Part shown: positions 9,033 through 33,220 of the stretch, in pieces | Layout: each line of letters opens with the position of its first letter | Numbering within the stretch: the first letter of the stretch is position 1 | Assembly (NCBI GenBank): GCA_030040965.1 | Contig: JASHOT010000280.1 | Location: forward strand, 9,420-73,419 | Source: Candidatus Sulfotelmatobacter sp. | GTDB taxonomy: Bacteria > Acidobacteriota > Terriglobia > Terriglobales > Acidobacteriaceae | Direction of reading: 5' to 3' | DNA length: 64,000 nucleotides | Translations under genes and position numbers: made by a program | The notes under the pieces: model-generated | The model's input: the letters and a program-made list of their open reading frames with translations, nothing else | What the model was told of the DNA's origin: nothing | The model's database searches: none

Positions 9033-10298
9033 TTAGGCGGCTCCGGTCGCGGCACGCTCGAGGGGCAGAACTACTGAAAAAGTGCTTCCCTTACCGATTG
9101 CGCTAGTCACATCGATACGACCTTGATGTTCTTCCACGATGCGTCGGGCAAGAGATAATCCCAGTCCGGTTCCATCGCCCTTGGTCGTGTAAAAGGGACG
9201 AAAAATGTTGGGCAGCGAACTGGGCGAGATGCCGCGCCCGTTGTCTTCGATTTCGACAACGGCGGTCATTCCTTGCTGCTTGACCGTAACTTCGATCTTG
9301 CCGTTCGCGTCGATCGCCTGCAGAGCATTGAGCAACAGGTTCAGCAGGACCTGATGAATCTGATCGCTGTCGTGCTCGATTTCTGGAAGGGAACTGTCCT
9401 TGTGCAGGATGATGTTGACCGATTTTGCCAGCGCTTGCTGACGTCCCAGCATGACCGCGTGTTCGACGGTGGTGTTCAGATCGCTTTTACGCACGGCGGG
9501 AGGATGTGGCCGCGCCGTCTGCAACAGATCACTCACAATATGATTGATCCGTGCGATCTCCTGTCGAACATCTTTCACGACCGCGCGCGCGGGACTGGTA
9601 GGGGGCAGATCGCGCCCTATGATTTCAATCACGCCTGCGATTCCTGCGAGCGGATTACGGATTTCATGAGCCAGGCCGGTCGCCAGTTCGCCGAGAGTGG
9701 CGAGGTGTTCAGCACGTGACATCTGGGTGCGGTGCAGCCGCTCGATTTCTTCGCGGCTTTCGCGCAACTGTTCGACCATCTGATTGAAGTTGCGGCCGAG
9801 ATCTCCGATTTCGTCATTGCGGCGCGAAAAACTCACCGATGCCGTCAGATCGCCCGCGCCCACACGCGAAATCTTCTGTTGCAGCTCGACCATCGGACGC
9901 TGCACTGTGTACGTGAGAACGACCAGCAAAGCCCCGCAGATGGCAACTGCACCCGCACCCGCGACCAACAACACGATATGCCGCTCCGGATCGCGCCAGG
10001 AAAGCGTCGCCAGAAGAAAAAGCAGAAGGCCGCCCAGCAGCACGCAGGCAATCGGGACCAGCGCTTTGATTTCCCAGTTTATGCCGAACCACGATAGTTC
10101 GGGATTCTCCATTTTTGGAGCGCCAATGTCTGCCATTGCCGTTCCCGTCGCGCTGGCGTACCCGGTGCTGAACGATCTCCGGCGGGTGGGAATGATGGAC
10201 TCTACGTCATCCGATTCGGGTTGTGGCGCGGGGCTCGTCATTTCCTTGTTTATCTCGTACCTGGCCGTGTTGTCTTCGACCGTCTCAGGCATAAGCAT
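9033..10298 (-). CDS. sensor histidine kinase with HAMP domain and almost no periplasmic loop (intramembrane-sensing type)
   Basis: Two TM helices separated by ~6 residues (RDPERH). HAMP domain, H-box LAHEIRNPL, and HATPase boxes DNGRGI and GTGLGLS. The start overlaps the ccsA stop by 14 nt. Confidence 0.85.
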
Positions 10299-11718
10299 GC
10301 AATCCGGGGAGCAGGTACGTCACTCCGAAGAAGGTAAACATCACAACTGCGAAGCCTCCCACGGCAAAGTAGGCGGCGACGCGGCCTCTCATGCCACGCG
10401 TAATGCGCATGTGCAGATAGGCCGCGTACACCAGCCAGGTAATCGCCGCCCACGTCTCTTTGGGGTCCCAGTTCCAGTAGGAACCCCAGGCCCGATTGGC
10501 CCAGTAGGCGCCGGCGGCAATCATCAGGGTGAGCAGAGGGAAGGCAATGCAGATGGTTTTATAGGTGATGCGGTCCAGGTCGTCAGAGCCGGGCAGAAGC
10601 CGCTCCAAGTCCTGGCGCCGCCATAACAGCAACAGATAAAGCAGGTTGGCAAAGATTCCTCCGACCAGCGCCGAGAGAATGAATGGGCTCGCCGCCAGGC
10701 TGGTAGCGAAGAGGCCATCGGCATCGAGCGAAGGATAACGCCCGTCGCGCGCCCGCAGCACGAAAAACACCAGCGCGAGCGATTGCAGCAGGATGCTGAT
10801 GAACACGGCGCGATTCGCAGTTGCGATCAGGCCGTCGTTCTTCTTCGCCAACGCGAAAATGTAGAGCGCCAGGGGCGCGGCAACAGCGGCGAGAACCAGA
10901 ACCATCAGCCAGCCGAGATCGGGAATCGTCACGAACAGCCGCACTCCCCGCGAAAGAAAGACTTCCTGCTTGTTATCCGCGTCCCAGGCCACAACGTTCA
11001 GTCCGCCCCAGCGTTCGAAGCGAGTCAGTATCGCGGCATAAACTCCCACCGTAAAAATGCTGGTCGCGGCGAGGAAGGTCTCGGTCTTCATTTTGTCCTG
11101 GATAAGAAACATCATGGCAAGCGCGAAGCTCAGCGCGCAGGCCGCATAGGCGAGCATGGCCAGTGTGACGTGCACGTGCAGCCATGTAGATTGCAGCGCC
11201 GGGACGAGCGGCCGAACGTCGCTGCGCAGAAGCTGCATCAGCACCACTCCGACAATGGCGACGGGCATGGTGACCGTGCCGATAACTTTTACGCCGTAGC
11301 GTTTCTCGGCGATCAAGGTGAGCGCGGCCAGCGTCCATACAAAACTCAGCAGCATTTCATAGAGGCTGGCAAAGGGCGGATGTCCCGCCTCGTACCAGCG
11401 ATGCGCAACCGCGCCGGTATTGGCAATCAGCCCAGCCCAGGTCGAAAGCGAAGCAAACTTGATGTACGACTCGGTCCCGGTGACGCCGAATCCGAGATAT
11501 AGAGCTCCAGCGCCCGCGTAGAACACCAGAGCCGCGTAGAGCAGGTTGGCCTCACTGGCCAGATTTCCGTTTTTCACCACATTCAGGAACGCGATGAACA
11601 GTAGGAACGCGATGCTCAATCCCACCCCCACGACCAGCGTGGTGCCGTTTGCAGCTTCTGCGCGTCCTCTTGCGATCTCTGCTCTTGCCATATCCACAGT
11701 CCTCCGTTGCCGGCTCAT
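10285..11718 (-). CDS. ccsA: cytochrome c biogenesis System II haem-handling protein CcsA/ResC
   Basis: Polytopic membrane protein with the tryptophan-rich [14 protein letters not shown] motif. Sits directly after resB. Confidence 0.85.
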
Positions 11719-11733: not shown

Positions 11734-13185
11734 TTATCCTCGGATCGCCGCGGCTTTTGGTTCTTCAGCCGCTTCCGCCGATTTGGACTTCAGATCCTTC
11801 TGAATCTGCGCCACGACATCTTTAAACTTCTGCTCGAATGCGTCGCGGTTGCGGTTGGCCGTTCCTCCAACCCAGAGCATGGAGTGGCCGCGCGCGTCGA
11901 TGACCGGAACGACCCACAACCTCACGTGCGAGACGTAGAACACGAAGGTCAGGCCGATGGCCATCAGCACCACTCCGGCCCATACCGACCACTGTCCCGG
12001 CTCATGCGAAACCTGCAAGCCGGTGAACAGCCCCGTCTTCAGGTCTTTGGGCTGAAAAATGTAGGGGGAAGCTGCATTTTCCGCAAAGCCCTGAATCTCC
12101 GGAAGCCAGACATTGACTGCTTTGTTCGCCTTCTTTGAAGTCACGATCATGTGAACCGCGGGATTCACCACATCGTTGCTGCGCGCGTAGATGTGGCCAT
12201 CCTGGACGACGAAGTCGGGAATGAACTCAGTCAGTTCCACGGTTGTGTCGGAATCAAGCGGAACCGGCTGATTCAAAGAGAGCGCGATTTCCTGCGCCTT
12301 GCCGGTCTTTTCATCGATGGGTGTAACATCGAGCGTCAATTTGTCGAGCTTCCCGGTCTGACCGAAGCTGGACTGGTAGAAGCGGACACCGTGATAACTG
12401 AGAGGATCGTTTACGACGATTTCTTTGCGCGAAACTTCGCGCCCGTTCTCCACCACGGCCAGCTTCGACCACCATTTCTTGGGAGAACCGTCGGCGTAGG
12501 TTTCCTCCCCGGTGCCGTCGCAGCGGATGGAGAAGGGAATTGTTTTGGTGGTACCGGTCTTGATTTCGATCTGGTTGCTCGACGTTCCCGGAGTCAGCAT
12601 CAGAAACCCGCGCCAACCGTAGAGCGCGTCGACGATTCCGCCGAGGAAAATCAGGAGCAGGCTGGCATGCACGATGTAAACCGCCATCTCGGAAATTCGG
12701 TGGCGCTCGGAGAACAGCGAAAAACTGTCGGTGCGGACGATCCGCTCGGAATGAAAGCCCACATGCTTGAGAGCCCGCTCGGCGGCGCTCAATCCTTGCT
12801 CTTCGTCATCGATCCTGATCTGCGCCTGTGTCGGCAAGGCACGGCGGAAGATGTCGTCGGGACTCTTATAAGGCCGCGCGAAATAACGCCAGGCGTTGGG
12901 GAAGCGCTCGACCGAAGCCGCGATGATGCACAGGCTTACCAACACCAGGAGCGCGACAAACCAGCGCGCGTGGAACACGTCGGTCAGTCCGGTTACGTCC
13001 AGAAAGCGCAGCATAGCCGGAGAGTAAGCCCGCTGCATGTCGTCGGGATCGATCATTGGGCGCTGCAGAATCACCGTGCCCGCAGCGGAAAAGATGACGC
13101 ACAAGATAATGAGAATCACGCCGGTCTTGATCGAACTCAGCGTCCGCCACAGTTTTCGTGGTGCAGTTTTCATTGACAGGGCCAT
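11734..13185 (-). CDS. resB: cytochrome c biogenesis System II protein ResB/Ccs1
   Basis: N-terminal TM helices, a large extracytoplasmic domain and a C-terminal TM. Adjacent to ccsA. SD GAGGAAG before the ATG at 13185. Confidence 0.8.
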   Translation of the reverse strand: MALSMKTAPRKLWRTLSSIKTGVILIILCVIFSAAGTVILQRPMIDPDDMQRAYSPAMLRFLDVTGLTDVFHARWFVALLVLVSLCIIAASVERFPNAWRYFARPYKSPDDIFRRALPTQAQIRIDDEEQGLSAAERALKHVGFHSERIVRTDSFSLFSERHRISEMAVYIVHASLLLIFLGGIVDALYGWRGFLMLTPGTSSNQIEIKTGTTKTIPFSIRCDGTGEETYADGSPKKWWSKLAVVENGREVSRKEIVVNDPLSYHGVRFYQSSFGQTGKLDKLTLDVTPIDEKTGKAQEIALSLNQPVPLDSDTTVELTEFIPDFVVQDGHIYARSNDVVNPAVHMIVTSKKANKAVNVWLPEIQGFAENAASPYIFQPKDLKTGLFTGLQVSHEPGQWSVWAGVVLMAIGLTFVFYVSHVRLWVVPVIDARGHSMLWVGGTANRNRDAFEQKFKDVVAQIQKDLKSKSAEAAEEPKAAAIRG

Positions 13186-13420: not shown

Positions 13421-13592
13421 AGTTCGATTGCGGGAGAAGGCCCATTCGTACTACGCCACTGGGTACTGTGGAAATCGGCATCAGTCGGTGATGAGTTTCT
13501 CATCTGCTTTGTTTGCAGTTATTTGCGGAAATTCCACAGACTGAGGGATTTGGCCACAGGTAAGGGCACGCGCATGCACATGCAGAAGTGGC

Positions 13593-15116
13593 ATGTTCCG
13601 CGAGATCTCAAATCGCAGCCTTCCCAAAGTAACCGGCGAAAGCGCCCTCCCCCGATTTCTGAAACTCGCGGCTGTTCTGTTCCTTGCGGTCACGCCGGCG
13701 CTGGCCAAGACACATCCGGTGCCCCTCGATAAGAATGTCGACTCCGCCAAGTGCGTGGAATGCCATGAAGACAGGACCAAAGGCAAGGCGGTCCACTCCG
13801 CCATTGCCATGGGATGTCTGAGCTGCCACGAAGTGCGCGTGACCCGCGACGTAACTCGGGTCAAGCTGAAGACCACGACGACCCAAGCCCTTTGTCTGAG
13901 CTGCCATGATGATAAGAAAGTCCAGGCGGGGCAGACGATGCATCCGCCGGCGGTTCGCGATTGCATCAAGTGCCATGATCCGCACGAGTCCGATAATCCC
14001 AACCAGCTGCTGAGGGCGATTTCCGGTACAACGCGGGACGACAATCTTTGCCTGTCATGCCACAACGTTGGGGTGAACGTGCCGAAAGATGGCAGCCGGC
14101 ACGCCGCGCTCGATATGGGATGCGACAGCTGCCACGTCACCCACAAGAACGGCGAGCGGGGAAAGATCGAGTTTGAAGCGCACTTAAAGAAAGCAGTTCC
14201 CGACCTGTGCGTCGATTGCCACGACGTAAAAGATGCCGCCCTGCAGAAGACGCATGCCGGACAGCCCTTCGATAAGGCGAACTGCCTGCAATGCCACAAT
14301 CCACACGAGTCGGCGAAGCCCAAGTTGATGCAGACTTTCCTGCACAACCCCTTCGAAAACAAGATGTGCGACACCTGCCATCAGCCGGCGAAGGACGGCA
14401 AGGTGGTTCTGACCAGCTCCGACAGCAAGGCGCTGTGCGTGACCTGCCACGACGATCAGGCAAAGAAAATCGACACGGCAAAGGTGCAGCATCCAGGCGC
14501 GCAGGGTGATTGCGTGACCTGCCACAACCCGCACGCGGGAAAGTCGCCGGGCTTCCTGCAGCCCGATCCGGTGCAGGCGTGCCTGGCCTGCCACAGCGAC
14601 CAAGCCGATCAGATGAAGAAGGCGCACCTGCATCAGCCGGCGTTCCAGCAGGGATGCGCGACCTGTCACGAGCCGCATGGTGGGGAAAATGACCACCTGC
14701 TGCGGGCGGCCAATGTCAACAAGCTCTGTCTCGAGTGCCACGGGCCGGATGCGAATCCGCAGAAGGTCGAGAGCGAGCATCTGGTCACGATCTTCAACGG
14801 CGGCGTGAAGCTCCCGGAGGACTACTTCCGCAAAGTGATCCAGCTGCCCATTCAATACGGCCATGGTCACCCGGTCGATCGGCATCCGGTCTCCGACATC
14901 ATGGATCCGAAAGACCAGAGCAAAGTTCTAAAGCCCATCAACTGCCTGACCTGCCATCAGCCGCACTCGGGAGCGAATGCGGGAATGCTGGCGAAGGATC
15001 AGCCAAACAACATGGCGTTCTGCATGACCTGTCATGCCGACCTGAATTCAGGTGGGCAGCCGGCGCAGAACGCGCAGCCGACAGCACCGAAGGCGCAAGG
15101 CGGGACCACAAAATGA
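13593..15116 (+). CDS. 16-haem c-type cytochrome (periplasmic, c7/c3-like repeats)
   Basis: 16 CXXCH motifs counted in 507 aa, many as CxxCH.PH. N-terminal hydrophobic signal segment LKLAAVLFLAVTPALA. Confidence 0.9.
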   Translation: MFREISNRSLPKVTGESALPRFLKLAAVLFLAVTPALAKTHPVPLDKNVDSAKCVECHEDRTKGKAVHSAIAMGCLSCHEVRVTRDVTRVKLKTTTTQALCLSCHDDKKVQAGQTMHPPAVRDCIKCHDPHESDNPNQLLRAISGTTRDDNLCLSCHNVGVNVPKDGSRHAALDMGCDSCHVTHKNGERGKIEFEAHLKKAVPDLCVDCHDVKDAALQKTHAGQPFDKANCLQCHNPHESAKPKLMQTFLHNPFENKMCDTCHQPAKDGKVVLTSSDSKALCVTCHDDQAKKIDTAKVQHPGAQGDCVTCHNPHAGKSPGFLQPDPVQACLACHSDQADQMKKAHLHQPAFQQGCATCHEPHGGENDHLLRAANVNKLCLECHGPDANPQKVESEHLVTIFNGGVKLPEDYFRKVIQLPIQYGHGHPVDRHPVSDIMDPKDQSKVLKPINCLTCHQPHSGANAGMLAKDQPNNMAFCMTCHADLNSGGQPAQNAQPTAPKAQGGTTK

Positions 15117-16372
15117 CATCCAGAAATCGCAAACAAGTTGGAATGGCGGCGATGCTGGGCGTACTGCTCTCGTTAGGCCTGGCCGCTCCGCTCCATGCCG
15201 ACAAGAAAAAGAAAGACGACCCGAACGCGGCGGCAAAGAAGACGGTGCTCGAGGAAATCGACTATTCGAAGCTGGTGTGGCCCAATCCACCGGCTCCGAC
15301 GCGGGTGAAGTATCTGAATTATTTCTGCTGCGACAAGTACGTGGCCGCCGCGCCCAAGCAGAAGTCTTCGTGGATGGATCGCATGGCCGGCGCCGACAGC
15401 GCGCAGCAGAAGCAGCTGGATAAGCCGCTGTTCGCGCTGTGGACGCCGTACGGCATCGCGGTCGACTCGAAGGGAACGGTCTACGCCGCCGACGGCAAGG
15501 TGGGCGCGATCTTCATGTTCAACACCGAGACCAAGGAGCTGACGATGATCAAGAACGGGGTGCAGGCGCACTTCGGCGACATCATCGGGCTGGCCATCGA
15601 CGATGCCGACCGGCTCTTCGTCTCCGACACCAAGTTTCACCGCATTCTGGTGCTCGATAAGGACCACAAGGTGGAAGGCGCGATCAGCGAGGGAAATCTG
15701 GTCGATCCGGCCGGAATGGCCATCGACAACGAAAACCGCTTCCTCTACGTGGCCGATGCCGGACGCGACCAGGTCATGGTTTACGACGCCGACAAGCTCA
15801 ACCTGCTGCGCACCATCGGCACGGCCGGCAAGAAGCACACGCTGACCGAAGCCGGGCAGTTCTCGGCGCCGACCAACGTGGCGCTCGACGCCGACAACAA
15901 CCTGTACGTCACCGACATGTTCAATAACCGCGTCGAGGTCTTCGACGCCGACGGGAACTTCATCCGGGCATGGGGAAAATCGGGCGACCGGCCGGGATAC
16001 TTCACTCGGCCGAAGGGAATCGCCATTGACGCTGACGGTCACGTCTGGGTTGCCGACGGCCAGCTCGACATACTGCAGGTTTACACGCAGGACGGGCAAT
16101 TTCTGATGTGGATGGGCGGGCACGGCTTGTTCCCAGGACAGTTCCGGGCGCTGGCCGGGCTCTATATCGACAAGAACAACCGGATTTTCACCTCCGAGCA
16201 GTATCCCGGGCGGGTGCAGATGTTCCGCTACTTCACCGATGACGAGGCGAGGGCGCAGATCAAGCAACGCCAGGCGGAGGTTGACAAGAAGAGATCGGAG
16301 GGGCCTAAAGCGGCAGCCGCGGACACTGCGGCCACTTCGTCCCCTGCGAGTTCTGCGGCAAAACCGCAATAG
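15113..16372 (+). CDS. NHL-repeat six-bladed beta-propeller protein (secreted)
   Basis: ATGA overlap with the upstream stop. Signal peptide MAAMLGVLLSLGLAAPLHA. Repeated blades such as LYVTDMFNNRVEVFD and VWVADGQLDILQVY. The track ORF start at 14735 is a spurious 5' extension. Confidence 0.85.
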   Translation: MTSRNRKQVGMAAMLGVLLSLGLAAPLHADKKKKDDPNAAAKKTVLEEIDYSKLVWPNPPAPTRVKYLNYFCCDKYVAAAPKQKSSWMDRMAGADSAQQKQLDKPLFALWTPYGIAVDSKGTVYAADGKVGAIFMFNTETKELTMIKNGVQAHFGDIIGLAIDDADRLFVSDTKFHRILVLDKDHKVEGAISEGNLVDPAGMAIDNENRFLYVADAGRDQVMVYDADKLNLLRTIGTAGKKHTLTEAGQFSAPTNVALDADNNLYVTDMFNNRVEVFDADGNFIRAWGKSGDRPGYFTRPKGIAIDADGHVWVADGQLDILQVYTQDGQFLMWMGGHGLFPGQFRALAGLYIDKNNRIFTSEQYPGRVQMFRYFTDDEARAQIKQRQAEVDKKRSEGPKAAAADTAATSSPASSAAKPQ

Positions 16373-16401
16373 GGTTTGGCTGTTCCGCGGATAGCCAAAC
16401 C
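16373..16401 (+). other. intra-operon stem-loop GGTTTGGCT-N11-AGCCAAACC with no U-tract
   Basis: 9-bp perfect stem immediately after the NHL gene stop, in the only sizeable gap (122 nt) of the operon. Confidence 0.3.
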
Positions 16402-16494
16402 GGGGCTGGTGCAAGCCGGCTCCGGGCTGCAAGCGCAGTAATAGAAGTAGCGGTGGAAGTAACAGCTGTTACAAAACAGGAGGTTTCATACGGT

Positions 16495-17517
16495 ATGAAA
16501 AAGCTACTCTTTGTAATGTTCGTGGTTATGCTCGCGGTCGGAATGGCTGCGGCGCAAAGTTACACAGCTGGCGGCGGCACGGGATTGTACGGTATTGATA
16601 TCCTGGGCGCCCACCAGAATGGCGGACGTGGTTGCGCTGGCTGCCATGCTCCGCACAGCGGCGCAGCGGGCGGCGGCGGCAACGCGGCCACCAACGCGGC
16701 TGCATTCAACGATCCTCTCTCCGGCAGCGCGGCGCTGTTCGGACAAGATGTAACTCCTCTGTTGGGATACACCATCACCCTGGGGAACGGCTATGTTGAG
16801 ACGCTGCCTGGCGAAGCGACCGCTTACACCACGCAGACCGCCGAACTGGAAGGCATCACCATGTGCCTGGCTTGCCATGACGGCGTGGTTGCGAAGGGCC
16901 AGATGATGAACGGCCAATCGTGGGAGCAGAGAATGGGTCTGCTGCCTTCGACCGTGTACGGAACCCGTCCCATCCCGACGCTGCTCGGCAACGATAGCGG
17001 CGACGGCAACACCAGCGGATACGGCAACGATCACCCGGTGGGCGTGCAGGCCACTTTGGCTGCCGTGGGTGCGTGGAGCAACAACGCCACGACCAGCCCG
17101 TTGACCATCACGATCAACGCCAACGGCGCGATCAGCAACATCGTTCCCAACAACGCTGCGTATGTGGCGTTCAATGCCAACTACGGCTATCCGGCCATCG
17201 CCGGCAGCCGCTGGGGTTGGGGCGTTTCTGTTCCCGCTGGAGCAACCAGTGGCGGACAGGCGTTCCTGACCTGCACCACCTGCCACAACCAGCATGCGAT
17301 GTATGTCTACACTGCCCCGGCCGGCAAGCAGACCGGCGCTTCGATCGCGGGCGGCGGATATTATCCGACGTACTTCTTCATCAACTCGCCCTATAACCCG
17401 GGCGCGGGCAACACCAACCCGAACGTGGCGGTTTCGACGACGCAGTTCTGCCGTCAGTGCCACGTGACGGAGTCAAACGAGTACGCCGGCATCACCACGG
17501 TCACCACGCAGTACTAA
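16495..17517 (+). CDS. tetrahaem c-type cytochrome, Gly/Ala/Thr/Asn-rich and loop-dominated (340 aa)
   Basis: 4 CXXCH motifs (CAGCH, CLACH, CTTCH, CRQCH). AGGAGG lies 11 nt before the ATG at 16495. Signal peptide MKKLLFVMFVVMLAVGMAAAQ. Confidence 0.85.
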   Translation: MKKLLFVMFVVMLAVGMAAAQSYTAGGGTGLYGIDILGAHQNGGRGCAGCHAPHSGAAGGGGNAATNAAAFNDPLSGSAALFGQDVTPLLGYTITLGNGYVETLPGEATAYTTQTAELEGITMCLACHDGVVAKGQMMNGQSWEQRMGLLPSTVYGTRPIPTLLGNDSGDGNTSGYGNDHPVGVQATLAAVGAWSNNATTSPLTITINANGAISNIVPNNAAYVAFNANYGYPAIAGSRWGWGVSVPAGATSGGQAFLTCTTCHNQHAMYVYTAPAGKQTGASIAGGGYYPTYFFINSPYNPGAGNTNPNVAVSTTQFCRQCHVTESNEYAGITTVTTQY

Positions 17518-17583
17518 CCGTTGAAATGGGGGAGGGAGATGGTCTCTCCCCCGTTTTTCCAGAGCTCGATTGAAGGAATCGCA

Positions 17584-18672
17584 ATGAAATGCCAAGTGGG
17601 GTGGGTGATGACGGGGATAAAGGCAGCGACGAGATTAGGAATGACGATGGGAGTGGTGCTCGGCCTGGCGCTTTGTGGGAGCGCGCAGGTGGTGGCCTCG
17701 CATGCTCCAACGCTGGCTGCGCCCGCGGCGGGCAATACGGCGGCGGCGACGCCGGTCACAGTGACTGCGCCCTCGAGCGGGCAACCGGTGGTGAAGGTGA
17801 ATGGAGCAGTCCTGACCGATCGCGACCTGCTGCGCGAAGAAGAGACGATTTTCCCTTACGCGAACATTCATAACGGCTCGATGCCGAAGGCGATGGAGCC
17901 GGAGATGCGCAAGGGCGCGATGGAAATGATCATCTTCGAAGAGTTGCTCTACCAGGAGGCGCTGCGCGAGAAGCGGACGGTGCCGGCCGAGCAGTTGCAG
18001 CGGGCGGAAGTGGAGTTTCGCAAGCAGTTTGCCACCGATGAGGAATTCAAGCAGGTATTGCAGAACGAAGTGCACGGTTCGAAGCAGCTGATGCGGGAGA
18101 AGATTCGCCGCTCGCTGCTGATCGACGAGATGCTGAAGACGGAAGTGCGCGACAAGGCGAAGGTGAGCGAGGCGGGGGCGCGGGCGTATTACGGCGCGAA
18201 TCCGAAGAAGTTCGAGCACAAGGAGATGTTCGCGATCCAGACGATTTCGATCATTCCGCCGCAGAATGCGAATCCCGACGTGGTCGAGGAAGCGCGCAAG
18301 AAGGCGCAGAACGCGTTGAAACAGGCGAAGGCGACCAAGAGTTATCAGGAGTTCGGCCTGCTGGCGGAAAAGATCTCGGACGATGACTGGCACGTGAACA
18401 TGGGCGACCGCAAGGCGGTGGAACGGGAAACGCTGCCTCCGCAGATTGTCGCCGCGGCGCTGGTTATGAAGCCGGGGCAGGTGAGCGATCTGATTCAGTT
18501 GGGGCCGGCGTACACGCTGTTCCGGCTGAACAAGCACATTCCGGCGGGCGCGGCGCCGTTTGAGGAAGTGAAAGCGAAGCTGATTACGGATCTGGAAAAG
18601 GAAAGAACCGAACAGCTTCGTTCGGCGCTCGACAAGAAACTGAGAAAGACGGCCAAGATTGAGGTTCTGTGA
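17584..18672 (+). CDS. SurA/PpiD-like periplasmic chaperone with parvulin-type peptidyl-prolyl isomerase domain
   Basis: Signal-like N-terminus. SurA-N-like helical region followed by a parvulin-like segment (...FAIQTISI...MGDRKAV...GQVSDLIQLGPAYTLFRL). The start was chosen at the ATG with GAAGGA upstream. 17521 and 17608 are alternatives. Confidence 0.75.
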   Translation: MKCQVGWVMTGIKAATRLGMTMGVVLGLALCGSAQVVASHAPTLAAPAAGNTAAATPVTVTAPSSGQPVVKVNGAVLTDRDLLREEETIFPYANIHNGSMPKAMEPEMRKGAMEMIIFEELLYQEALREKRTVPAEQLQRAEVEFRKQFATDEEFKQVLQNEVHGSKQLMREKIRRSLLIDEMLKTEVRDKAKVSEAGARAYYGANPKKFEHKEMFAIQTISIIPPQNANPDVVEEARKKAQNALKQAKATKSYQEFGLLAEKISDDDWHVNMGDRKAVERETLPPQIVAAALVMKPGQVSDLIQLGPAYTLFRLNKHIPAGAAPFEEVKAKLITDLEKERTEQLRSALDKKLRKTAKIEVL

Positions 18673-18761
18673 AGCGGGCAGCCAATGGCGCATGGAGATT
18701 GATGTGGAAGTTGCGCCAGGGCATGGGGGAAGAAATCAGGTGGGGCATGCCGCGGGAATGG

Positions 18762-20606
18762 ATGAAACTTCGGAGCGCGTGCAGATGGCTCGCCGGCGTG
18801 TTGCTGGCAGCGTTGCCGGCCGCGGCGCAGATGCAGGTCGGGCTGGCGACGATGAACCTGAGCGGCAACGTCGGCTATACCTACGACGGGGGCATGGATC
18901 AAGGAGCTTCGAGCCATGGCATGGGATTTACGGGCAACGGAACTCTGACCGGGAATTACTACAACCCCAATTTTCTGAACTTCAACGTCCAGCCTTTCTA
19001 TAACCGCTCGCAGTCAGACTCGTTGTTTGGCACGCTGACCAACGCGTCGGGAGTTTCGTCGAATGTGAACCTGTTCGGCGGCACGCACTTTCCCGCAACC
19101 GTTTCCTTTGGCCGGGTGTTCAACGCGACCTCGGCGTTCGGCGTGCCCGGCTCCGATATCGGACTGGCACAGCACGGGAATACGCAGACGGTTGGCTTCG
19201 GCTGGAGCGCGTTGATACCGAACTGGCCGACGCTCACGGTGAATTACGGGATCAACGGCACCTCGAACGAGATTCTGGGCGAAGAAGGAAACGACACGGA
19301 AAAAGATCACACGCTCAACATGCTCTCGACGTATAAGCTGGACGGCTTCCGCATGACCGGCCAGTTCACGCACCGCAATACCGATGCGTCGTTTGACGAG
19401 GTGGTGGAAGACGGCGAAGGCCCGGTGACGACGCTGAGTTCGAGTAACACTTTCGGCGCGACGGTGACGCATTCGCTGCCTCTTTCCGGAGGGTTCGGGG
19501 TGAGCTGGACGCATCTAGGCTATAGCTACAACTATGACGATTCAGACTCGGCCAGCAACTCGGGCGGGGCGAGTACGGTGAATGCGAATGCGTCGGTCCA
19601 TCCCACACCGAAGCTCGCCATATCGGGAAATTCGAGCTACAACGACAGCCTGTTGGGAAGCATTCCGCAACCTCTGCTGAACAGCGGAGCGCCGCTGAAT
19701 TTGACCAGCCTGGGCAGCTTCCAGTCGGTATTTGTGGGCGGCGACGTGTTCTATCAACTGCTCAAGAATCTTGGCGTTCATGCCGATGTAGACCATGAGA
19801 ACCAGATGTTTCTGGGCAAAAGTTATTCGGCGACGCAATTCGGAGGCAGCGTCAACTTCCTTTTTGATCATTCCATTCTGAAGGGGTTGTCGTTCTCGGT
19901 GGGCGCGGTCGATACGGCACAGCAGGAGAGCAATACCGGACTGGGGTTCGTGGGCACGGTGAACTACAACCGCAAGTTCTACGGATGGGATGTGGGCGCG
20001 AACTTCAGCTATTCACAGAATGTGCAGACTGTGCTGCTGCTGTATACCACGTCGTCGTACAGCTACCTGGGAAACGTGAGACATCGCATCGGCGAGAGCA
20101 CATACTTCATGGCGGGATACAGCGGGGCGCACAGCGGGCTGACGGCAAATTCGGGTACCACGAGCAGCGCCGAACGGTTCTATACGACTTTCTTGCATCG
20201 CGGCAACAGCTTCAACGCCTTTTACACGCAATCCGATGGACTGGCGGTGCTGACGGCAAGTGGGCTGGTGCCGGTCTCGACGACTCTACCGACGCAGGTG
20301 CTGGAGTCCAGTGCGCTGACCTCGTATTCGTCGAAGGGATGGGGATTTAATATTGGCCTGACCCCGATCAAGCGGTTGACCATCAGCGGCGGATTCGCGA
20401 AGTCGAACGGCGATACGATCGCTCCTTTATTAACGACCTATAACAACAACGAACTGATCAACGCAGTCATGCAGTACCGGTTAAGAAAGATATACCTCAA
20501 TGGCGGATATACGCGACTGCAGCAGAGTTTAGGTGTGCCGGGCTCGTCGCCGATTATGGTAACGTCGTACTACATCGGGTTCTCCAGATGGTTCAACTTC
20601 TTCTGA
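18762..20606 (+). CDS. predicted large outer-membrane beta-barrel (porin-like, ~614 aa)
   Basis: Signal peptide MKLRSACRWLAGVLLAALPAAAQ. Long run of short alternating hydrophobic/polar strands rich in G/S/T/N/Y. C-terminus ...YYIGFSRWFNFF (terminal aromatic). An alternative GTG start at 18669 overlaps the PPIase stop. Confidence 0.7.
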   Translation: MKLRSACRWLAGVLLAALPAAAQMQVGLATMNLSGNVGYTYDGGMDQGASSHGMGFTGNGTLTGNYYNPNFLNFNVQPFYNRSQSDSLFGTLTNASGVSSNVNLFGGTHFPATVSFGRVFNATSAFGVPGSDIGLAQHGNTQTVGFGWSALIPNWPTLTVNYGINGTSNEILGEEGNDTEKDHTLNMLSTYKLDGFRMTGQFTHRNTDASFDEVVEDGEGPVTTLSSSNTFGATVTHSLPLSGGFGVSWTHLGYSYNYDDSDSASNSGGASTVNANASVHPTPKLAISGNSSYNDSLLGSIPQPLLNSGAPLNLTSLGSFQSVFVGGDVFYQLLKNLGVHADVDHENQMFLGKSYSATQFGGSVNFLFDHSILKGLSFSVGAVDTAQQESNTGLGFVGTVNYNRKFYGWDVGANFSYSQNVQTVLLLYTTSSYSYLGNVRHRIGESTYFMAGYSGAHSGLTANSGTTSSAERFYTTFLHRGNSFNAFYTQSDGLAVLTASGLVPVSTTLPTQVLESSALTSYSSKGWGFNIGLTPIKRLTISGGFAKSNGDTIAPLLTTYNNNELINAVMQYRLRKIYLNGGYTRLQQSLGVPGSSPIMVTSYYIGFSRWFNFF

Positions 20607-21760
20607 GGATCGCAGCCGGAAGGAAGTTCCTGCGTTTCGGGGCCGCTCTCACAGGGATGGTGCTGCTTCTGGCGGCTGCGGGATGGGCCGCGGGCGGGGG
20701 CAAGGCAAGCAGGGACAAAGAAAAAGCGGCCGAGCCGGCGCCTCCGGATTTGCTGCTCGAGGGCGGCCGCAAATTGCACTACGAGCGCAGCTTCAGCTCC
20801 GAAAAAGAAGTGGAAGGCAAGCGCGGATTTTTCACCAAGCTGGTGGATGTGGTTGCGGGTGAGCCGGACCATCCGCATCTGGTGCGGCCCTACAGTATTG
20901 CCGTGGATTCGAAGGGACGAGCCATCGTTGCCGATCCGGGCGCGAACGGGATCCACATCTTCGACTTCGAAAATCACAAGTACAAGTTCATCGAGCGGCG
21001 GGACAAGTCGAAAGACAAGGACCCGATGCGCACGCCGCAGTGCGTCGCCGTCGATGCGCAGGACAATATTTATGTCACCGATTCGGTGGCAGGCAAAGTT
21101 TTCGTCTTCGATCCCAGCGGAAAATTCAAGCGCGCGCTGGGCAGCCTGAAAGGCGGCGAAGGATATTTCAAGCGGCCTACCGGCATTGCCGTGGATTCGA
21201 CTGCGCAGAAGATATACATCAGCGACACGCTGCGCGACAAAATCTTTGTGCTCGATATGGATGGCCGGGTGCTGACGAGCATCGGCAAGCGGGGCGGAGG
21301 CGACGGGGAATTCAATCTTCCGACGGAACTGCTGGTGCACGACCAGAATCTGTACGTGGTTGATGCCATGAATTTCCGGGTGCAGTATCTGGACCGCGGC
21401 GGCGCCTATCAGACCGAGATTGGCCGCATCGGGGATACCAGCGGCACGATGTTCCGGCCGAAAGGGATTGCGATCGATTCCGAAGACCACTTGTACGTGG
21501 TGGATGGGCTGTGGGGTATTGTTCAGGTTTTCGATCAGCAGGGAAGGTTGCTCTATTACTTCGGCAGCCGCGGAACGGCGAGCGGTGAATTTCAGTTGCC
21601 CACCGGATTGTTTATCGATCACGACGACCACGTCTACGTGGTCGATTCGTTCAACCGGCGCGTGCAGGTATTCAAATATTACGGCTTACCGAAGCAGGCG
21701 CTGTCGCAACCATCGGGGCCGGCGCAGCAGCCGAGGGAAGAACAAGGATCGGGACGATGA
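20588..21760 (+). CDS. NHL-repeat six-bladed beta-propeller protein, second copy
   Basis: Overlaps the upstream gene by 19 nt. N-terminal membrane/signal segment. Blades include IYVTDSVAGKVFVFD, IYISDTLRDKIFVLD, LYVVDAMNFRVQYLD and VYVVDSFNRRVQVFKY. Confidence 0.85.
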   Translation: MVQLLLRIAAGRKFLRFGAALTGMVLLLAAAGWAAGGGKASRDKEKAAEPAPPDLLLEGGRKLHYERSFSSEKEVEGKRGFFTKLVDVVAGEPDHPHLVRPYSIAVDSKGRAIVADPGANGIHIFDFENHKYKFIERRDKSKDKDPMRTPQCVAVDAQDNIYVTDSVAGKVFVFDPSGKFKRALGSLKGGEGYFKRPTGIAVDSTAQKIYISDTLRDKIFVLDMDGRVLTSIGKRGGGDGEFNLPTELLVHDQNLYVVDAMNFRVQYLDRGGAYQTEIGRIGDTSGTMFRPKGIAIDSEDHLYVVDGLWGIVQVFDQQGRLLYYFGSRGTASGEFQLPTGLFIDHDDHVYVVDSFNRRVQVFKYYGLPKQALSQPSGPAQQPREEQGSGR

Positions 21761-23682
21761 AGCGACGGACTCCAGCCACGGTGCTGTTGCTGCTCGGCCT
21801 GATCGCGCATCCGGCGAGCGGCCAGACACAGCCAGCGGGCGACGTCCTCGGCTCGCACAACCTCTCCCTCAGCGGAACATCCCCAATCAAAGGCCGGCTT
21901 GATCCCTGCCTCTATTGCCATGTGCCGCACTCCGGCGTGCAGAATTCGAATGCGGCGCTGTGGAGTCAGACGCTCTCGACCCAAACCTATACCACGTATT
22001 CGAGCACAACACTGCACAATACGTCGCAGCAGCCAACGCTGGGAGGACCGAGCAGCCTGTGCCTGAGCTGTCACGATGGCACGGTGGCTGTAGGGCAGAC
22101 GCAGCCTTACGGGCAGGTCCCGATGAGCGGCAGCATGTACCCAGCCGACGTGTTTGGAACGAATCTGCAGGGATCACATCCGTTCAGCTTGAAGCTGCCG
22201 CTGGTGGACGCGGCGGATCTTGTGCCTTCGCTGGTGTTGAATGGAACGACAGCCGATCCCCTGCATGCGGTGCAGCTAATCAACGGTGACGTGGAGTGCA
22301 CCAGCTGCCACACACCGCACAACCAGGCGATCGACACGATATCGAAGAATTTTCTGGTGCGCGACAGTTCGAGTGGGCAACTTTGCCTGGCCTGCCACGA
22401 TCCGAATCCGCGGACGGTCAACGGACAAAGCAATGACCTGGCGCAGTGGTCGGGCAGCATCCATTCAACGGCGGGAAATGCGATTGCCAACAATCCCTTG
22501 CTGGGCAGCTACACAACCGTGGCGCAGAACGCGTGCCTGTCGTGCCACATGCCGCATAATTCGGCGTCGCCGATGCGACTGCTGCGCGAGCCGGTGCCGC
22601 CCATGCCCAACATGGATGTCTCGACGCAGAACTGCATCACCTGCCACAACGGCAACTCCAATATTTCGCCGGCGATTACCAATGTCTATGCGGAGTTTGC
22701 CAAGATCTCCCATCCGTTTCCTGCAGGCGTGAACCAGCATGATGCGGGCGAGCCGGCGCTGCTGAACAATAATCGTCACGCAACGTGCGTGGACTGCCAT
22801 AATCCGCACGCTGCCTTGCAGGTGACTTCGTTTTCGGCGACGCTACCACCGCTGATCCGGCCGTCGCAAGCCGGTGTGGTCGGGATCAGCGCCACCGATG
22901 GTGTGAGCGTCCTTACTCCGGCAGTGAATCAATATGAGAACTGCTTGCGCTGCCATGGCATGAGCACCGGCAAACAAACTCCGGCGATCTTTGGATACCT
23001 GCCGACCCGCATCGTCAATGCTGCCGATCCGTTGAATCTGTTGCCGCAGATGAATTCCACGGCAAGCTCGAGCCACCCGGTACTGCATCCTAGCTCGAGC
23101 GCCTTGCCGCAGCCGAGCCTGCTGGCGTTCATGCTGCAACTGGATGGGAAGACGCAAGGGCGGGCGATGGGCACGCAAATCTATTGCAGCGACTGCCACA
23201 ACAGCGACGACAATCGCGAGTTCGGCGGCACCGGCCCCAACGGGCCGCACGGATCGAAGTGGCTGCATCTGCTCGAGCGCCGCTACGAATTCAGCGAGGC
23301 TCCCGGACCGGGACAACGCATTACCAATCTCTATCCCAATCCGGATGTCAGCATCAACGGCCCCTACGCCATGTGCGGGAAATGCCACGACCTGCAGAAC
23401 CAGATTCTCGCAAATACAAGCTGGGCACGGCATTCCAGCCACATCAACGCGGGATTCTCCTGCTCGACCTGCCACACTCCGCATGGCATCGGAGCGAGCA
23501 GCGGAAATCTCACCGGCGAGCGGCTTATCAATTTTGATTCGAAAGTCGTTGCGCCCAACGGCGGCATGCCGGTCTCCTATAATCGCGGCGCCAACACCTG
23601 CGCGCTGGTTTGCCACGAGACCGTGCACTATCCCAATGGCACGGTTACGCCGCTGACGGTAAAGGGGCCGGGGAAACGGTAA
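21757..23682 (+). CDS. multihaem c-type cytochrome with 11 CXXCH plus one CX3CH (CALVCH)
   Basis: ATGA overlap with the upstream stop. Signal peptide MKRRTPATVLLLLGLIAHPASG. Motifs counted by eye, several as CxxCH.PH. Confidence 0.9.
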   Translation: MKRRTPATVLLLLGLIAHPASGQTQPAGDVLGSHNLSLSGTSPIKGRLDPCLYCHVPHSGVQNSNAALWSQTLSTQTYTTYSSTTLHNTSQQPTLGGPSSLCLSCHDGTVAVGQTQPYGQVPMSGSMYPADVFGTNLQGSHPFSLKLPLVDAADLVPSLVLNGTTADPLHAVQLINGDVECTSCHTPHNQAIDTISKNFLVRDSSSGQLCLACHDPNPRTVNGQSNDLAQWSGSIHSTAGNAIANNPLLGSYTTVAQNACLSCHMPHNSASPMRLLREPVPPMPNMDVSTQNCITCHNGNSNISPAITNVYAEFAKISHPFPAGVNQHDAGEPALLNNNRHATCVDCHNPHAALQVTSFSATLPPLIRPSQAGVVGISATDGVSVLTPAVNQYENCLRCHGMSTGKQTPAIFGYLPTRIVNAADPLNLLPQMNSTASSSHPVLHPSSSALPQPSLLAFMLQLDGKTQGRAMGTQIYCSDCHNSDDNREFGGTGPNGPHGSKWLHLLERRYEFSEAPGPGQRITNLYPNPDVSINGPYAMCGKCHDLQNQILANTSWARHSSHINAGFSCSTCHTPHGIGASSGNLTGERLINFDSKVVAPNGGMPVSYNRGANTCALVCHETVHYPNGTVTPLTVKGPGKR

Positions 23683-24341: not shown

Positions 24342-27300
24342 CTATTGCACCGTCAGCGTCGCCGTGGTGATGGCTACCGGACTCGGCTGGGCTGCCGTCG
24401 TTCCCTGTATCTGGATGTTGTAGGTCACGGGATTCTGCTGATGTGACGAACTGCTGCTTCCCCCGCAACCGACGAGAGCAAACAGAGCCAGGGAGGCTAG
24501 GGCGAGCGACAGCCAACGCTTGCGATTGCGGCGCGCACGGCCAATCAGAAGAATTCCAGCAAGCGGACTGAAGGCGAGAGAAATCTGAGTAGCCAGGAGC
24601 GTTGTGTGGCCATTCTTCAGGGGCTGTTTGTTGAGCGAAGCGGAGTCCGACGGCACCGTGACCGTCAGCGTGAACGATACGGCGCTGCTGCCAGGCGTAA
24701 TGGTCGCAGGTGAGAAGGTGCAAGTCGAGCCTGTGGGAATAGAGCTCTGCAAACACGAAAGCGTGATGGGCTGGTGCGGGTTGCCGGTGTTGGCGTTGAG
24801 AGAAAGCGAGAAGTTGGCTGTGCCTCCCGGGGAGATCGTCTGCGGAGCCGGTTGGCCGGCCGAAGGAGCGGTAACGATTGCGATCGGGTAAGACCCGGAA
24901 ACCGTGGAGTCGGCCTGCGAAACGGCGGTGATCAGAACCAGCGCCGGCGAAGGAACGGAACTCGGCGCCGTGTAGTTACCGTTCGTGTCGATCGTGCCGA
25001 TGGTCGAGTTGCCGCCGGCGATCGTGTTCACTTCCCAATTCACGGCGGTGTTCGTTTCTCCGGTCACGGCAGCGGTAAAGCTCTGGGTGCTGGAGGTATA
25101 GACCTCGGTCACGCCCGCTGGGGTTGTGCTCACACTGATGGCCCCAGCGTCGCTGGCCGCGAGAGTGACCGCTGCAGAGGCTGATGTCGTGCCATTCGCG
25201 TCCGAGATCGCGGTTACCGTTATCGCAGACGAAGGCGCGGTGGCCGGGGCTGTGTACAGACCGGAGGCGAGAATGGTTCCGACAGTTGAGTTGCCGCCGG
25301 TGACTCCGTTCACTTGCCAGGTGACGTTCGTGTTGTTGGCACCGGTGACCGTGGCGAGATATTGCTGCGTACCGCCGACGGCAAGGGTCGTCGACGATGG
25401 CACGACGGACATCACCACTGTGGATGTGAGCTGGCGGATGCGCGAATTCTGGCTATCGGCGACGAACAGATTTCCCGCGCTCACGGCAACGGCTTCAGGT
25501 CCGTTAAGCTGCGCCGAGGTTGCCGGTCCTCCGTCGCCCGAAAAGGCGGCTGTGCCGGTGCCCGCGATGGTCTCGATCGTGGCGTCGATGGCGACGACTT
25601 CGCGGATGGCGGAGTTGTCAGTATCGGCGATAAACATGTTGCCCAGCGAGTCGACCAGCACGCCAAAGGGAGTATTCAGCAGCGCAGAGGTGGGCGCGCC
25701 GTTATCGCCCGCATAGCCGTCCTGCCCGAGAGTTCCGGCGACGGTGAGGATGTCGCCCGCGGGAATTGTGGTTCCGGCGATCGTGATCGATTGAGTTGTG
25801 GAATTCACCACGCGAATTGCCGAGTTCTGAGAATCGGCGATGAAAATGTCGTCGGAGGAGTCGAGAGAAATGCCGGTAGGAAAGTTGAGAGATGCGGCAT
25901 TAGCGGGGCCATTGTCGCCGCAGCCGCTGCTCGGGTCGTCGCATGCTGTGGGGGGAAGTCCGGCCACGGTGTTGATGGTTCCGGGCAGAACAGTGACTAA
26001 TCCGATGACGAGGTTTTGCGTGCCATTGTTCACCACGCGTATGGCGGAGTTGCCGGTATCGGCGATGAAGATGTTGCCGGCGGCATCGACGGCGACAGCT
26101 TGTGGATTGTCGAGCTGCGCGCTGGTGGGCGCAAGACCGTCGCCGGCATACCCGGCAGAGCCGAGTGTTCCGACGATCGTGTTAATGATTCCTGCCGGTG
26201 TGACTTGACGGATGACCGAATTTTCCGCGGTAACCCCGGTATCGGCAATGTAGATGTTTCCGAGGCTATCGACGAAAACGCCGTAGGGAAAATTCAGCTG
26301 GGCACTGATGGCCGCGCCGCCATCGCCGCAGCCGCCTGGGGCGGGAACAGCGCAGGTACTGCCGTTTCCTGCGACGGTTTGAATGTCTCCGGGCTGGATG
26401 GTCACGTTACCGATGGTGACCGCTTGTGAGCCTGGGTTGTAGACACGGATGACGGAGTTGACGGTATCAGAGATGTAGACGTTTCCGCCAGCATCAACCA
26501 AAACGCCGCCGGGGAAGGCGAGTTCGGCGCTAGTGGCGGGCCCGCCGTCGCCGGAGTAGGCAAGCGTGTTATTGCCGACTACGGTCTGGATCGTTGTGCC
26601 TGTGACTTCGCGGATCACATAATTGTCGCTGTCGGCGACGAAAATGTCGCCGGAGCTGTCGAGGAAAACTCCTGCGGGATAATTCATCAGGGCGCTGGTC
26701 CCTGGTCCGGATGAGGGGGTATAGCCGAATTGCCCGAGCGTTCCGGCAACGGTCGTGATGGTGCCGCTTGAGCTGACCTCGCGGATGGCATAGTTAAAGG
26801 TGTCGGCGATGTAAACGTTATCCGAGCTATCCACGTAAAGGCCGACTGGCAGACAGAGGAAGGCGCTGGTGGCAGATCCGTTGTCGCCGGTAAACTGGCA
26901 TGCCGAGCCCGTCAGGGAGTTGTAGTAAGTGCCGGCGACGATTTCAATTTCGCCGGACGGAATAGTGATTCCGGCGATTGTGACCGACGCTGTCCCTGGA
27001 TTCACAACGCGGATCACTGAGTTCAGCGTGTCGGAGATGAAGATATTTCCAGCTGCGTCGAGATAGACGCGTTCCGGTTCGTTGAAAATTGCGTCGAGTG
27101 CGGGGCAGCCGTCTCCCAAAGCATCCGTTTGCGCTGCGCAGCCGGTTCCACCGCCGGCAACAGTCCCGATAATGCCGGTATTGTTCGTGACCAGACGGAT
27201 GCCATTGTTGTCGGTGTCGGCGATGAAGATGTCGTCAGAGGAATCGACGTACAGGCCGAATGGTTCATTCAACTGTGCGCTCGTTGCCGGACCGCCATCG

Positions 27301-27797: not shown

Positions 27798-28098
27798 GTT
27801 ATTTCCCCTTTCGGACGACGCGGTACGATCCTGAAAGCCGCGGTATGTCACTGGCGGCGCCGGCCGCGATCGAAACGGGCGATATAGCGGCGACTGCAAG
27901 CAGGAGATTGAAAGTGCGCGTCTTTCTCAAGTTCAAAGCACCCCAGTTCATAGGCGGCCGTCCTTTGAGGTTCGTTCTATTCCCAGGGGAGTTTCATTCC
28001 GGGGAAGTCGTAGAACCCGTGCAGAGATATCGAACCCGTCTTTTATCCCAAAGTAGGGTGCTCGGGCAAACTGTGCAGCCATTCATGTCACAGGCGGA

Positions 28099-32217: not shown

Positions 32218-32883
32218 TTACATGGCGGGCTTATCAGTTTTCGTCCCAGGAGCGATGCTGAGGTGGCGCTTCGCCTGCGCCATCATCTGTTCAACTTCGG
32301 GCCGTTTCGGACTCTTGGGTTCGAGTTTCAGATAAGCTTCCCAGGCGGCGATAGCCGCCTTCGGATCGGCTTTTCCCTTCCACTCAAAATAGCCGAGATT
32401 GAAGAGTACTTTCGAGTTTTTCGGATCGATCTTGTGGGCGCGGTTCAGGGTGGCAATGCCTTTATCAAGGTCGCCCAACTTCACATAGATGAAGGCCAGT
32501 TCGTTTAATGCATCCGGCTGCGGCTTGACCGATGCCGCTTCCTCCAGATATTGCTGAGCGCTCTGAAATTGCTGAGCGGACAGGTACGAGTGGCCAATTT
32601 GCGCTAAAAGATCGGCATCTTTCGGATTTTTCTGCAACTGTTCAAGCAAAGGAGCAACCTGCTTATCCGCCATGCGCTTGAGATCGGCGGCGCTGGGCAT
32701 GGGATGCGGAGGGTTGCCCGGCGCCGGAGCTGGCGCGACTGCCGACGTGGTGGCTCCTGCGCTAGCCGTTGCCGGTGCATGCAGCAGATAGCCGGCGGCT
32801 ATGCCTAGCATGAGGCAGATCACACCCATGGTGAAGGTTTGTGTGTTATTCCAGGTCTTTAAGCTTTGATCGCTGGTTTCCAT
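32218..32883 (-). CDS. membrane-anchored TPR protein (CcmI/CycH/NrfG-like periplasmic TPR module)
   Basis: N-terminal TM (FTMGVICLMLGIAAGYLL), Ala/Pro linker and TPR repeats. C-terminal ...AIAAWEAYLKLEPKSP...PGTKTDKPAM. Paralog of 33221-33922. Confidence 0.7.
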   Translation of the reverse strand: METSDQSLKTWNNTQTFTMGVICLMLGIAAGYLLHAPATASAGATTSAVAPAPAPGNPPHPMPSAADLKRMADKQVAPLLEQLQKNPKDADLLAQIGHSYLSAQQFQSAQQYLEEAASVKPQPDALNELAFIYVKLGDLDKGIATLNRAHKIDPKNSKVLFNLGYFEWKGKADPKAAIAAWEAYLKLEPKSPKRPEVEQMMAQAKRHLSIAPGTKTDKPAM

Positions 32884-32914
32884 TTTGCGTCGTTCCTAAG
32901 TTCAAGTACGTTGG

Positions 32915-33155: not shown

Positions 33156-33220
33156 ACCTCGCGACCAGCGATCAGGGCACAATCCCTGCAAACGTAGGGG
33201 ATTTCAACGAGGAGAATCAT

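Follow-up and report, generated by a model that had tools for sequence, protein, structure and literature searches.

A conserved seven-gene multihaem cytochrome cluster of Terriglobia and its likeness to omcE-type nanowire loci

The seven-gene cluster and its conservation

A 64-kb stretch of contig JASHOT010000280.1 from Candidatus Sulfotelmatobacter sp. (the window, whose numbering is used throughout) carries on its plus strand a run of seven open reading frames (13593-23682), here named g1 to g7, that encode multihaem cytochromes, beta-propellers, a prolyl isomerase and a predicted outer-membrane barrel. The first gene, g1 (13593-15116), encodes a 16-haem MtrA/DmsE-like cytochrome with a signal peptide and is followed by g2 (15113-16372), encoding a six-bladed NHL beta-propeller, also with a signal peptide; g3 (16495-17517), encoding a tetrahaem OmcE-family cytochrome of 340 amino acids (aa), the candidate polymerising (major) subunit; g4 (17584-18672), encoding a periplasmic prolyl isomerase chaperone of the SurA-N/parvulin type; g5 (18762-20606), encoding a 614-aa protein predicted to form an outer-membrane beta-barrel of 28 strands; g6 (20588-21760), encoding a second NHL beta-propeller; and g7 (21757-23682), encoding a 12-haem cytochrome in which an N-terminal OmcE domain (aa 28-215) is joined to an 8-haem extension. 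In the translations, the CXXCH motif occurs 16 times in g1, four times in g3 and 11 times in g7, which has one additional CX3CH, and it is absent from g2, g4, g5 and g6.

An earlier note on the window, made from the sequence letters, had claimed seven same-strand genes with these haem sites, joined by ATGA overlaps at 15113 and 21757 and a 19-nucleotide (nt) overlap at 20588. All of these features were recovered, as were the signal peptide of g5 and its RWFNFF terminus, which is kept in orthologues as RWF[ND]FF. The accompanying claim that the other junctions are gaps of at most 4 nt, with a single real gap, proved wrong: the gap between g4 and g5 is 89 nt, given the signal-peptide start of g5 at 18762, and that between g3 and g4 is about 66 nt, with g4 probably beginning at ATG 17584 (or 17608) and not at TTG 17521. 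The start of g4 has been revised because a conserved hairpin sits directly after the stop codon of g3 and would, together with its T-run (17528-17560), fall within g4 if TTG 17521 were used; the gene caller agrees, setting the start of the g4 orthologue 73 nt after g3.

Relatives of the cluster were collected by a genome scan with one genome per species, the 80 best loci were compared, and all proteins of the window were searched against these loci by tblastn. In public data, g3 homologues form more than 2,600 clusters at 90% identity, the best 120 of which span the full length with 64% identity or more. The 113 species genomes with relatives of the cluster are nearly all Terriglobia metagenome-assembled genomes (MAGs), among them Ca. 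Sulfotelmatobacter, Acidoferrales and the peat MAG SbA1, and no isolates were seen among the best 80 loci. Wherever the flank is long enough, the order from g1 to g7 is identical; it recurs in about 70 of the 80 related loci, down to 41% g3 identity, and the clustering of the seven genes is therefore far beyond chance. A synteny survey had been proposed in the earlier note, and its outcome is a gene order kept in about 70 species-level Terriglobia genomes. The haem motif numbers in orthologues are 16 for g1 (65 of 69), four for g3 (78 of 80) and 11 plus one for g7 (65 of 67). Divergence is fastest in g3 (minimum identity 41%) and g5 (minimum 34%), while g1 and g6 remain at about 63-65%.

Divergently from g1, on the minus strand, lie the genes for the System II cytochrome c maturation proteins ResB/CcsB (11734-13185, Pfam PF05140) and CcsA (10285-11718, PF01578), a sensor histidine kinase of HAMP-HisKA-HATPase architecture (9033-10298, Pfam) and a sigma-54-dependent response regulator composed of a receiver, an AAA+ sigma-54 activator and an HTH_8 domain (7391-8878, Pfam), as had been read from the sequence before. 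These genes are also present upstream in most related loci, with the synteny of the kinase kept and the regulator being 70-92% identical.

Additional copies of g3 have been observed outside the cluster. One lone copy with 79% identity (locus L010, 10001-11020) lies on the same 4.05-Mb contig as loci L001/L038 and is followed by the same type of terminator hairpin, without the other cluster genes; two g3 paralogues are found on further contigs (P0037/P0058 and P0013/P0059), which recalls omcS/omcT. The cluster also occurs in MAGs labelled Binatia, Verrucomicrobiia or Dormiibacterota (L012, L015, L017, L025, L047 and L077). Their flanking housekeeping-type genes are 74-89% identical to acidobacterial ones, and the hairpin region of L017 is identical to that of the Acidobacteriaceae locus L018; the labels are probably due to mislabelling or binning errors and not to transfer between phyla.

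Protein families and expression signals

In a search of the PDB, residues 1-215 of g7 gave matches to the OmcE filaments of Geobacter sulfurreducens (7tfs, E=1e-10) and D. soudanensis (9yuq, E=1e-9), and a hidden Markov model (HMM) of OmcE comprising 120 homologues aligns over its positions 24-229/230 with aa 28-215 of g7 (89.5 bits). An arrangement of g7 as three tandem OmcE modules, accounting for 12 haems as 3 x 4, was considered and dropped: the full HMM matches the N-terminal domain only, and the rest of the protein agrees at the level of motifs. For g3 the relationship emerges from the family. On its own, g3 retrieves nothing significant from the PDB, and a narrow g3 family profile reaches only E=0.018; a diverse profile of 36 representatives matches 9yuq (E=3.1e-10) and 7tfs (E=1.1e-3). 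In a joint alignment of g3 relatives, the g7 N-terminal domain and five true OmcE proteins, the invariant positions are the four CXXCH motifs, the distal histidines H40, H54, H180 and H267, and D129, G130 and P181. This haem and histidine pattern is the one given for OmcE homologues by Petersen et al., which keep four CXXCH motifs and four further histidines that complete bis-histidine ligation. By sequence, g3 and the N-terminal domain of g7 are members of the OmcE family.

Relative to OmcE, g3 carries three insertions and a C-terminal tail and exceeds it in length by about 100 aa. In its mature form g3 has exactly eight histidines, 80 aa for each haem and a charged fraction of 6.6%, a composition like that of OmcE and unlike that of PpcA (24 aa per haem, 38% charged) or of g1, which with 29 aa per haem and 22% charged residues resembles periplasmic cytochromes. 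Charged residues make up 10% of g7. Both g3 and g7 look extracellular by composition, and g7 is probably so. As to residue make-up, 54% of g3 consists of serine, threonine, glycine, asparagine and alanine. Its residues 325-340 (window 17467-17514) form a conserved C-terminal extension, NE..G....T.F/Y, which OmcE lacks; the extension ends in an aromatic residue, is predicted by AlphaFold2 (AF2) to include a short terminal strand, and could be a contact for the barrel or for a neighbouring subunit.

The partner proteins have been compared with databases and with the proteins of the G. sulfurreducens omcE locus (GSU0613-0619) and four related loci. In the PDB, g1 matches MtrA (6r2q_A, E=3e-17). 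With its 16 haems, g1 scores 175.7 bits against TIGR03508 (DmsE family), under the cut-off of 192.2, and 60 bits against TIGR03507 (OmcA/MtrC), under the cut-off of 209; g7 has no match to TIGR03507. The sequence and composition of g1 indicate that it is probably an MtrA/DmsE-like periplasmic cytochrome, and it also matches the 9-haem cytochrome of the Geobacter locus (E=3e-23). The NHL and SurA/parvulin products named in the earlier note are borne out by Pfam and NCBIfam: g2 (Pfam NHL/DUF5128) and g6 are six-bladed NHL propellers, and g4 combines SurA-N with a parvulin (peptidyl-prolyl isomerase) domain (Pfam Rotamase_2, Rotamase and SurA_N_3). Against the propeller encoded at the omcE locus of G. 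sulfurreducens, g6 has 36% identity over 311 aa (E=4e-55) and appears orthologue-like by sequence, and g2 has 27.5% identity (E=5e-38). The neighbouring CcsA is 55% and 37% identical to its omcE-locus counterpart in two segments, and ResB is also homologous.

For g5, searches of Pfam, NCBIfam (E<=0.01) and PDB sequences gave no match, including none to MtrB_PioB. An AF2 model built on a 44-sequence alignment has a signal helix and 28 beta-strands, with a predicted local distance difference test (pLDDT) score of 71.5, and a Foldseek search with this model places MtrB first (6r2q_B, E=1.3e-7, TMq 0.41), with SlpA, LptD and TonB-dependent receptors ranking behind it. On the model, g5 is predicted to be a 28-strand outer-membrane barrel, which agrees with the barrel that the earlier note had taken it for. 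Convergent to g7 lies a gene on the minus strand (24342-27899) for a 1185-aa NHL/teneurin-like repeat protein (Pfam TEN_NHL/NHL), which is 57-72% identical in at least 15 related loci and may belong to the system.

Several conserved elements surround g1 and g3. A GG-N10-GC element, AGGGCACGCGCATGCA (13563-13578, plus strand), which is a candidate sigma-54 (-24/-12) promoter, recurs in about 50 of 59 loci at a distance of 14-35 nt ahead of the annotated start of g1, with the alignment consensus taAGGcgaNNNtCGTGCA, and would fit a sigma-54 promoter served by the adjacent activator. The candidate emerged only from cross-locus conservation, a scan of the whole window for the canonical sigma-54 consensus having given 74 matches against 80 expected, with no enrichment. 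About 60 nt further upstream, at about 13500-13530, there is a second conserved box (consensus AAC..TGTTGCAATAAnTTACA), and the pair has the appearance of a sigma-54 promoter with an additional site upstream; should the GG-N10-GC box prove genuine, the true start of g1 may lie downstream of the annotated one (13593). The structured leader of g3 (16373-16494, plus strand) contains hairpins conserved in an alignment of 23 loci, TTTGGCTGTTCCGCGGATAGCCAAA and CCGGGGCTGG..CCGGCTCCGG, and a perfect 14-nt palindrome, GTAACAGCTGTTAC (16459-16472), followed by the strong ribosome-binding site AGGAGG (16478-16483). The palindrome and hairpins may serve as an operator, or else stabilise the RNA or direct its processing. 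In the most divergent clade, with about 42% g3 identity (L076, L079 and L080), the two promoter-like boxes of the g1 type are duplicated directly before g3, about 60-130 nt upstream of it (locus position 10001), and g3 appears to have gained its own promoter copy there.

Directly after the g3 stop, a GC-rich hairpin resembling an intrinsic terminator, GGGGGAGGGAGA...TCTCTCCCCC with a T-run (17528-17560, plus strand), has been identified by a consensus scan and is kept with compensatory changes in nearly all 80 loci. A canonical terminator also follows omcE directly in all five of the Geobacter-type loci, and g3, not g7, is therefore the positional equivalent of omcE. The leader of its own, the duplicated promoter boxes in the divergent clade and the terminator suggest an excess of g3 over the other products, in keeping with a role as a major structural subunit.

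Farther away in the window, HemA (glutamyl-tRNA reductase, haem synthesis) is encoded at 2219-3721, about 10 kb upstream, and is followed by a tandem pair of paralogous DUF5666 proteins, each about 540 aa long, at 4117-5754 and 5790-7397. Positions 32218-51811 hold a loose set of genes for three tetratricopeptide repeat proteins, an MBOAT acyltransferase, two GT2 glycosyltransferases, a methyltransferase and a PMT_2 (GT39-like) protein mannosyltransferase, which resembles the glycosylation islands after omcE clusters in freshwater Geobacter. On the minus strand at 51846-56319, two adjacent and unusually long TolC-like outer-membrane efflux (OEP) proteins of 698 and 694 aa are encoded.

A proposed role in nanowire biogenesis and alternative interpretations

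The cluster very likely encodes an outer-membrane-spanning extracellular electron-transfer module. Within this frame, we lean towards reading it as the Terriglobia (Acidobacteriota) version of the omcE-type cluster for extracellular cytochrome ("nanowire") biogenesis and electron export, with filament formation by g3 being plausible on sequence grounds. The earlier note had proposed an electron conduit or a filament-export module, a proposal now supported by the OmcE homology, the MtrA-like g1, the 28 predicted strands of g5 and the identity of g6; conduit and filament both remain as readings of the cluster. The fast divergence of g3 and g5, the putative surface parts, is counted in favour of the omcE-type assignment.

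Under this assignment, the histidine kinase and the sigma-54 activator would switch on the -24/-12 promoter upstream of g1. The apo-cytochromes would be exported by Sec and, as is expected from their families, the adjacent System II proteins ResB and CcsA would attach the haem. The g1 cytochrome would carry electrons through the periplasm to or into the barrel g5, as fold and composition suggest, with the docking of the two being conjectural. By analogy with the roles proposed for OscH, OscD and the omcE-locus propeller of Geobacter, the isomerase g4 and the propellers g2 and g6 may aid folding, export or assembly. In keeping with its family membership and transcript architecture, g3 would be made in excess, exported and, more speculatively, polymerised outside the cell into a chain of bis-histidine haems, and g7 may join the barrel to the filament, at its base or tip, or serve as a terminal surface reductase. 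The likely acceptors would be insoluble or organic, such as Fe(III) or peat organic matter.

Several observations weigh against the nanowire assignment. The g3 filament and the localisation of the proteins are putative. In a pairwise comparison g3 is only weakly similar to OmcE (E=0.003), g7 being the closer of the two in sequence, and many OmcE-like tetrahaem proteins are not known to polymerise (Petersen et al.). The AF2 model of g3, a monomer without haems, is poor (pLDDT 55.8), and a Foldseek search with it gave no match, so that the fold provides no evidence either way. No homology between g5 and the barrel of the Geobacter omcE cluster was detected by blastp or hhalign (probability 0.8%), and such homology is not claimed. 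The propellers g2 and g6 are without a lipobox cysteine, which the propeller of the Geobacter omcE locus has, and the action of the g3 terminator as an attenuator is conjectural.

The most serious rival is a filament-free, Mtr-like conduit in which the propellers serve as scaffolds, similar to the "EET1 porin-scaffold-cytochrome" reading of Fiorito et al. The same match of g1 to MtrA (E=3e-17) speaks for it, as does the rank of MtrB as the top fold match of g5, on which the preprint of these authors agrees (TM-score 0.48); g7 is predicted to be extracellular, and polymerisation of g3 is inferred, not measured. Such a conduit would, however, leave unexplained both the prolyl isomerase and the presence, at the very position of omcE between propeller and barrel, of an OmcE-family tetrahaem gene with a leader and a terminator, as in proven nanowire loci. 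Moreover, g3 with 80 aa per haem and 6.6% charged residues is unlike periplasmic shuttles such as PpcA (24 and 38%), and g5 lacks a sequence match to MtrB_PioB. The filament-free conduit is a real possibility, which we nevertheless hold to be rather doubtful.

It is less probable still, and in our judgement unlikely, that the same hardware runs inward and draws electrons from a donor outside the cell such as a syntrophic partner, Fe(II) or reduced humics. In principle, multihaem conduits can work in either direction, clusters of NHL propellers and multihaem cytochromes have been linked to electron uptake in Desulfovibrio ferrophilus (PMC5815863), and the host lineages Ca. Sulfotelmatobacter and SbA1 are named among the loci; however, no sequence feature gives the direction of flow, and the closest characterised relatives, OmcE and MtrA, reduce external acceptors. 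A set of multihaem enzymes confined to the periplasm, with chemistry on substrates such as nitrite, hydroxylamine or sulfite/tetrathionate and with an unrelated barrel, has been rejected as highly improbable, since weak sub-threshold matches to NrfH/NrfB, c554 and HAO motifs are set against the absence of CXXCK or any other catalytic-haem motif from the g1-g7 proteins, the lack of any enzyme family (Nrf/HAO-type included) at its curated cut-off and the tight conserved linkage to a 28-strand barrel and OmcE-family proteins.

Returning to the omcE-type assignment, a more specific and tentative proposal, which we regard as having a minor chance of being correct, is that Terriglobia build a new sub-family of insulated tetrahaem nanowires from g3, and that these are nucleated, anchored or capped by g7, whose OmcE domain would join the polymer while its eight extra haems would link to the barrel and the 16-haem wire. 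Structural proof of cytochrome nanowires is confined to two archaea and a few Desulfuromonadia, and their export, anchoring, start and stop are an open question of the field (Petersen et al.). The present analysis places an OmcE-type system in uncultured Terriglobia, where it is represented in over 110 species genomes and by thousands of proteins from metagenomes. The operon is compact and its parts are clearly separable: a subunit gene that has a leader and a terminator of its own, the chaperone, the barrel, the pair of propellers and a partner cytochrome with a fused OmcE domain. These parts can be tested as candidates for the steps, unresolved in Geobacter, by which nanowires are assembled and anchored. 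If g7 does nucleate, anchor or cap a g3 filament, no base or tip component of a cytochrome nanowire would have been identified before it. According to a preprint, these lineages could, through extracellular electron transfer, explain the excess of CO2 over CH4 in peat (bioRxiv 10.64898/2026.05.27.727921), and nanowires of g3, if they exist, would provide a direct molecular route for the respiration of peat organic matter, Terriglobia being among the most abundant bacteria of soil and peat.

Comparison with known systems

The earlier note had likened the cluster to the osc genes that accompany omcS in Geobacter; the shared part types stand, although the closest known system is the omcE cluster and not omcS/osc. 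The osc cluster was reportedly described by Shen et al. in 2025 (Cell Chem Biol 32:239). According to a secondary source, which bears out the statement in the note, the osc cluster of G. sulfurreducens provides OscH for folding, OscE/F/G for secretion and OscD for morphology (PMC13194489). The likeness is one of part types only, that is, a filament cytochrome, a folding factor, channel/secretion proteins and a morphology factor, with a prolyl isomerase in both (g4 here, OscH as reported in PMC13194489). The subunit differs, being an OmcE-family tetrahaem protein here and the hexahaem OmcS there; there is no six-haem protein among g1-g7 and no OmcS structure among the PDB matches.

With MtrCAB (6R2Q) the cluster shares the logic of a periplasmic haem wire, a barrel and a surface cytochrome, g1 being homologous to MtrA and MtrB being the best fold match of g5. 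Unlike MtrA with its 10 haems, g1 has 16 and stays under the DmsE-family cut-off, g5 has 28 predicted strands in place of 26 and no Pfam MtrB_PioB match, no member of the MtrC/OmcA family is present here (the TIGR03507 cut-off is not reached), and the OmcE-family proteins, the propellers and the isomerase are additional.

Part of the cluster has recently been named. "Acidobacteriota EET1" is a core of porin, NHL protein and cytochrome described from 49 MAGs (Fiorito et al., bioRxiv 10.64898/2026.05.27.727921, May 2026), which is found in Terriglobales/UBA7540, is transcribed through peat profiles and has been read as an Mtr-like conduit with an MtrB-like porin of TM-score 0.48. It is the same system: the MtrB-like porin corresponds to g5, the NHL scaffold to g6 and the "13-heme OmcE-like MHC" (multihaem cytochrome) to g7, for which 12 haem motifs are counted here. 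The text and supplement of the preprint treat the three-gene core only and make no mention of g1, g3, the isomerase, ResB/CcsA, the terminator or the synteny with omcE. The description of the operon in the earlier note as an uncharacterised machine has accordingly to be narrowed: g5-g6-g7 are already known as EET1, and what is new comprises g1-g4 and the parallel with the omcE nanowire cluster.

In the five Geobacter-type loci, the gene order is purHDE, ppcA, resB, ccsA, a 9-haem cytochrome, an 8-haem cytochrome, an NHL propeller, omcE, a barrel of about 750 aa without Pfam assignment, and glycosyltransferases. The omcE clusters adjoin resB/ccsB, contain one or more beta-propeller lipoproteins, encode no candidate for a tip or stopper in their operons and have been reported from five phyla, Acidobacteriota not among them (Petersen et al.). 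The cluster described here differs in its phylum, Acidobacteriota, in the length of g3 (about 100 aa more, with three insertions and the C-terminal tail) and of the barrel (614 aa as opposed to about 750 aa in Geobacter), in the inserted prolyl isomerase gene and in the partner cytochromes, which have 16 and 12 haems instead of 9 and 8. A complete OmcE domain is fused into g7, whereas the Geobacter partners have no full OmcE domain; the propellers here are not lipoproteins, resB/ccsA are divergent and not co-directional as in Geobacter, and a sigma-54 two-component system is attached. What the two have in common is an OmcE-family tetrahaem subunit with the same four CXXCH motifs and four distal histidines, adjacent resB/ccsA, two partner multihaem cytochromes (here g1 and g7), a large outer-membrane barrel gene near the subunit gene (g5, downstream of g3), fast evolution of the surface parts and the succession of propeller, subunit, terminator and large barrel, and in these respects the cluster matches the published minimal omcE cluster (Petersen et al.).

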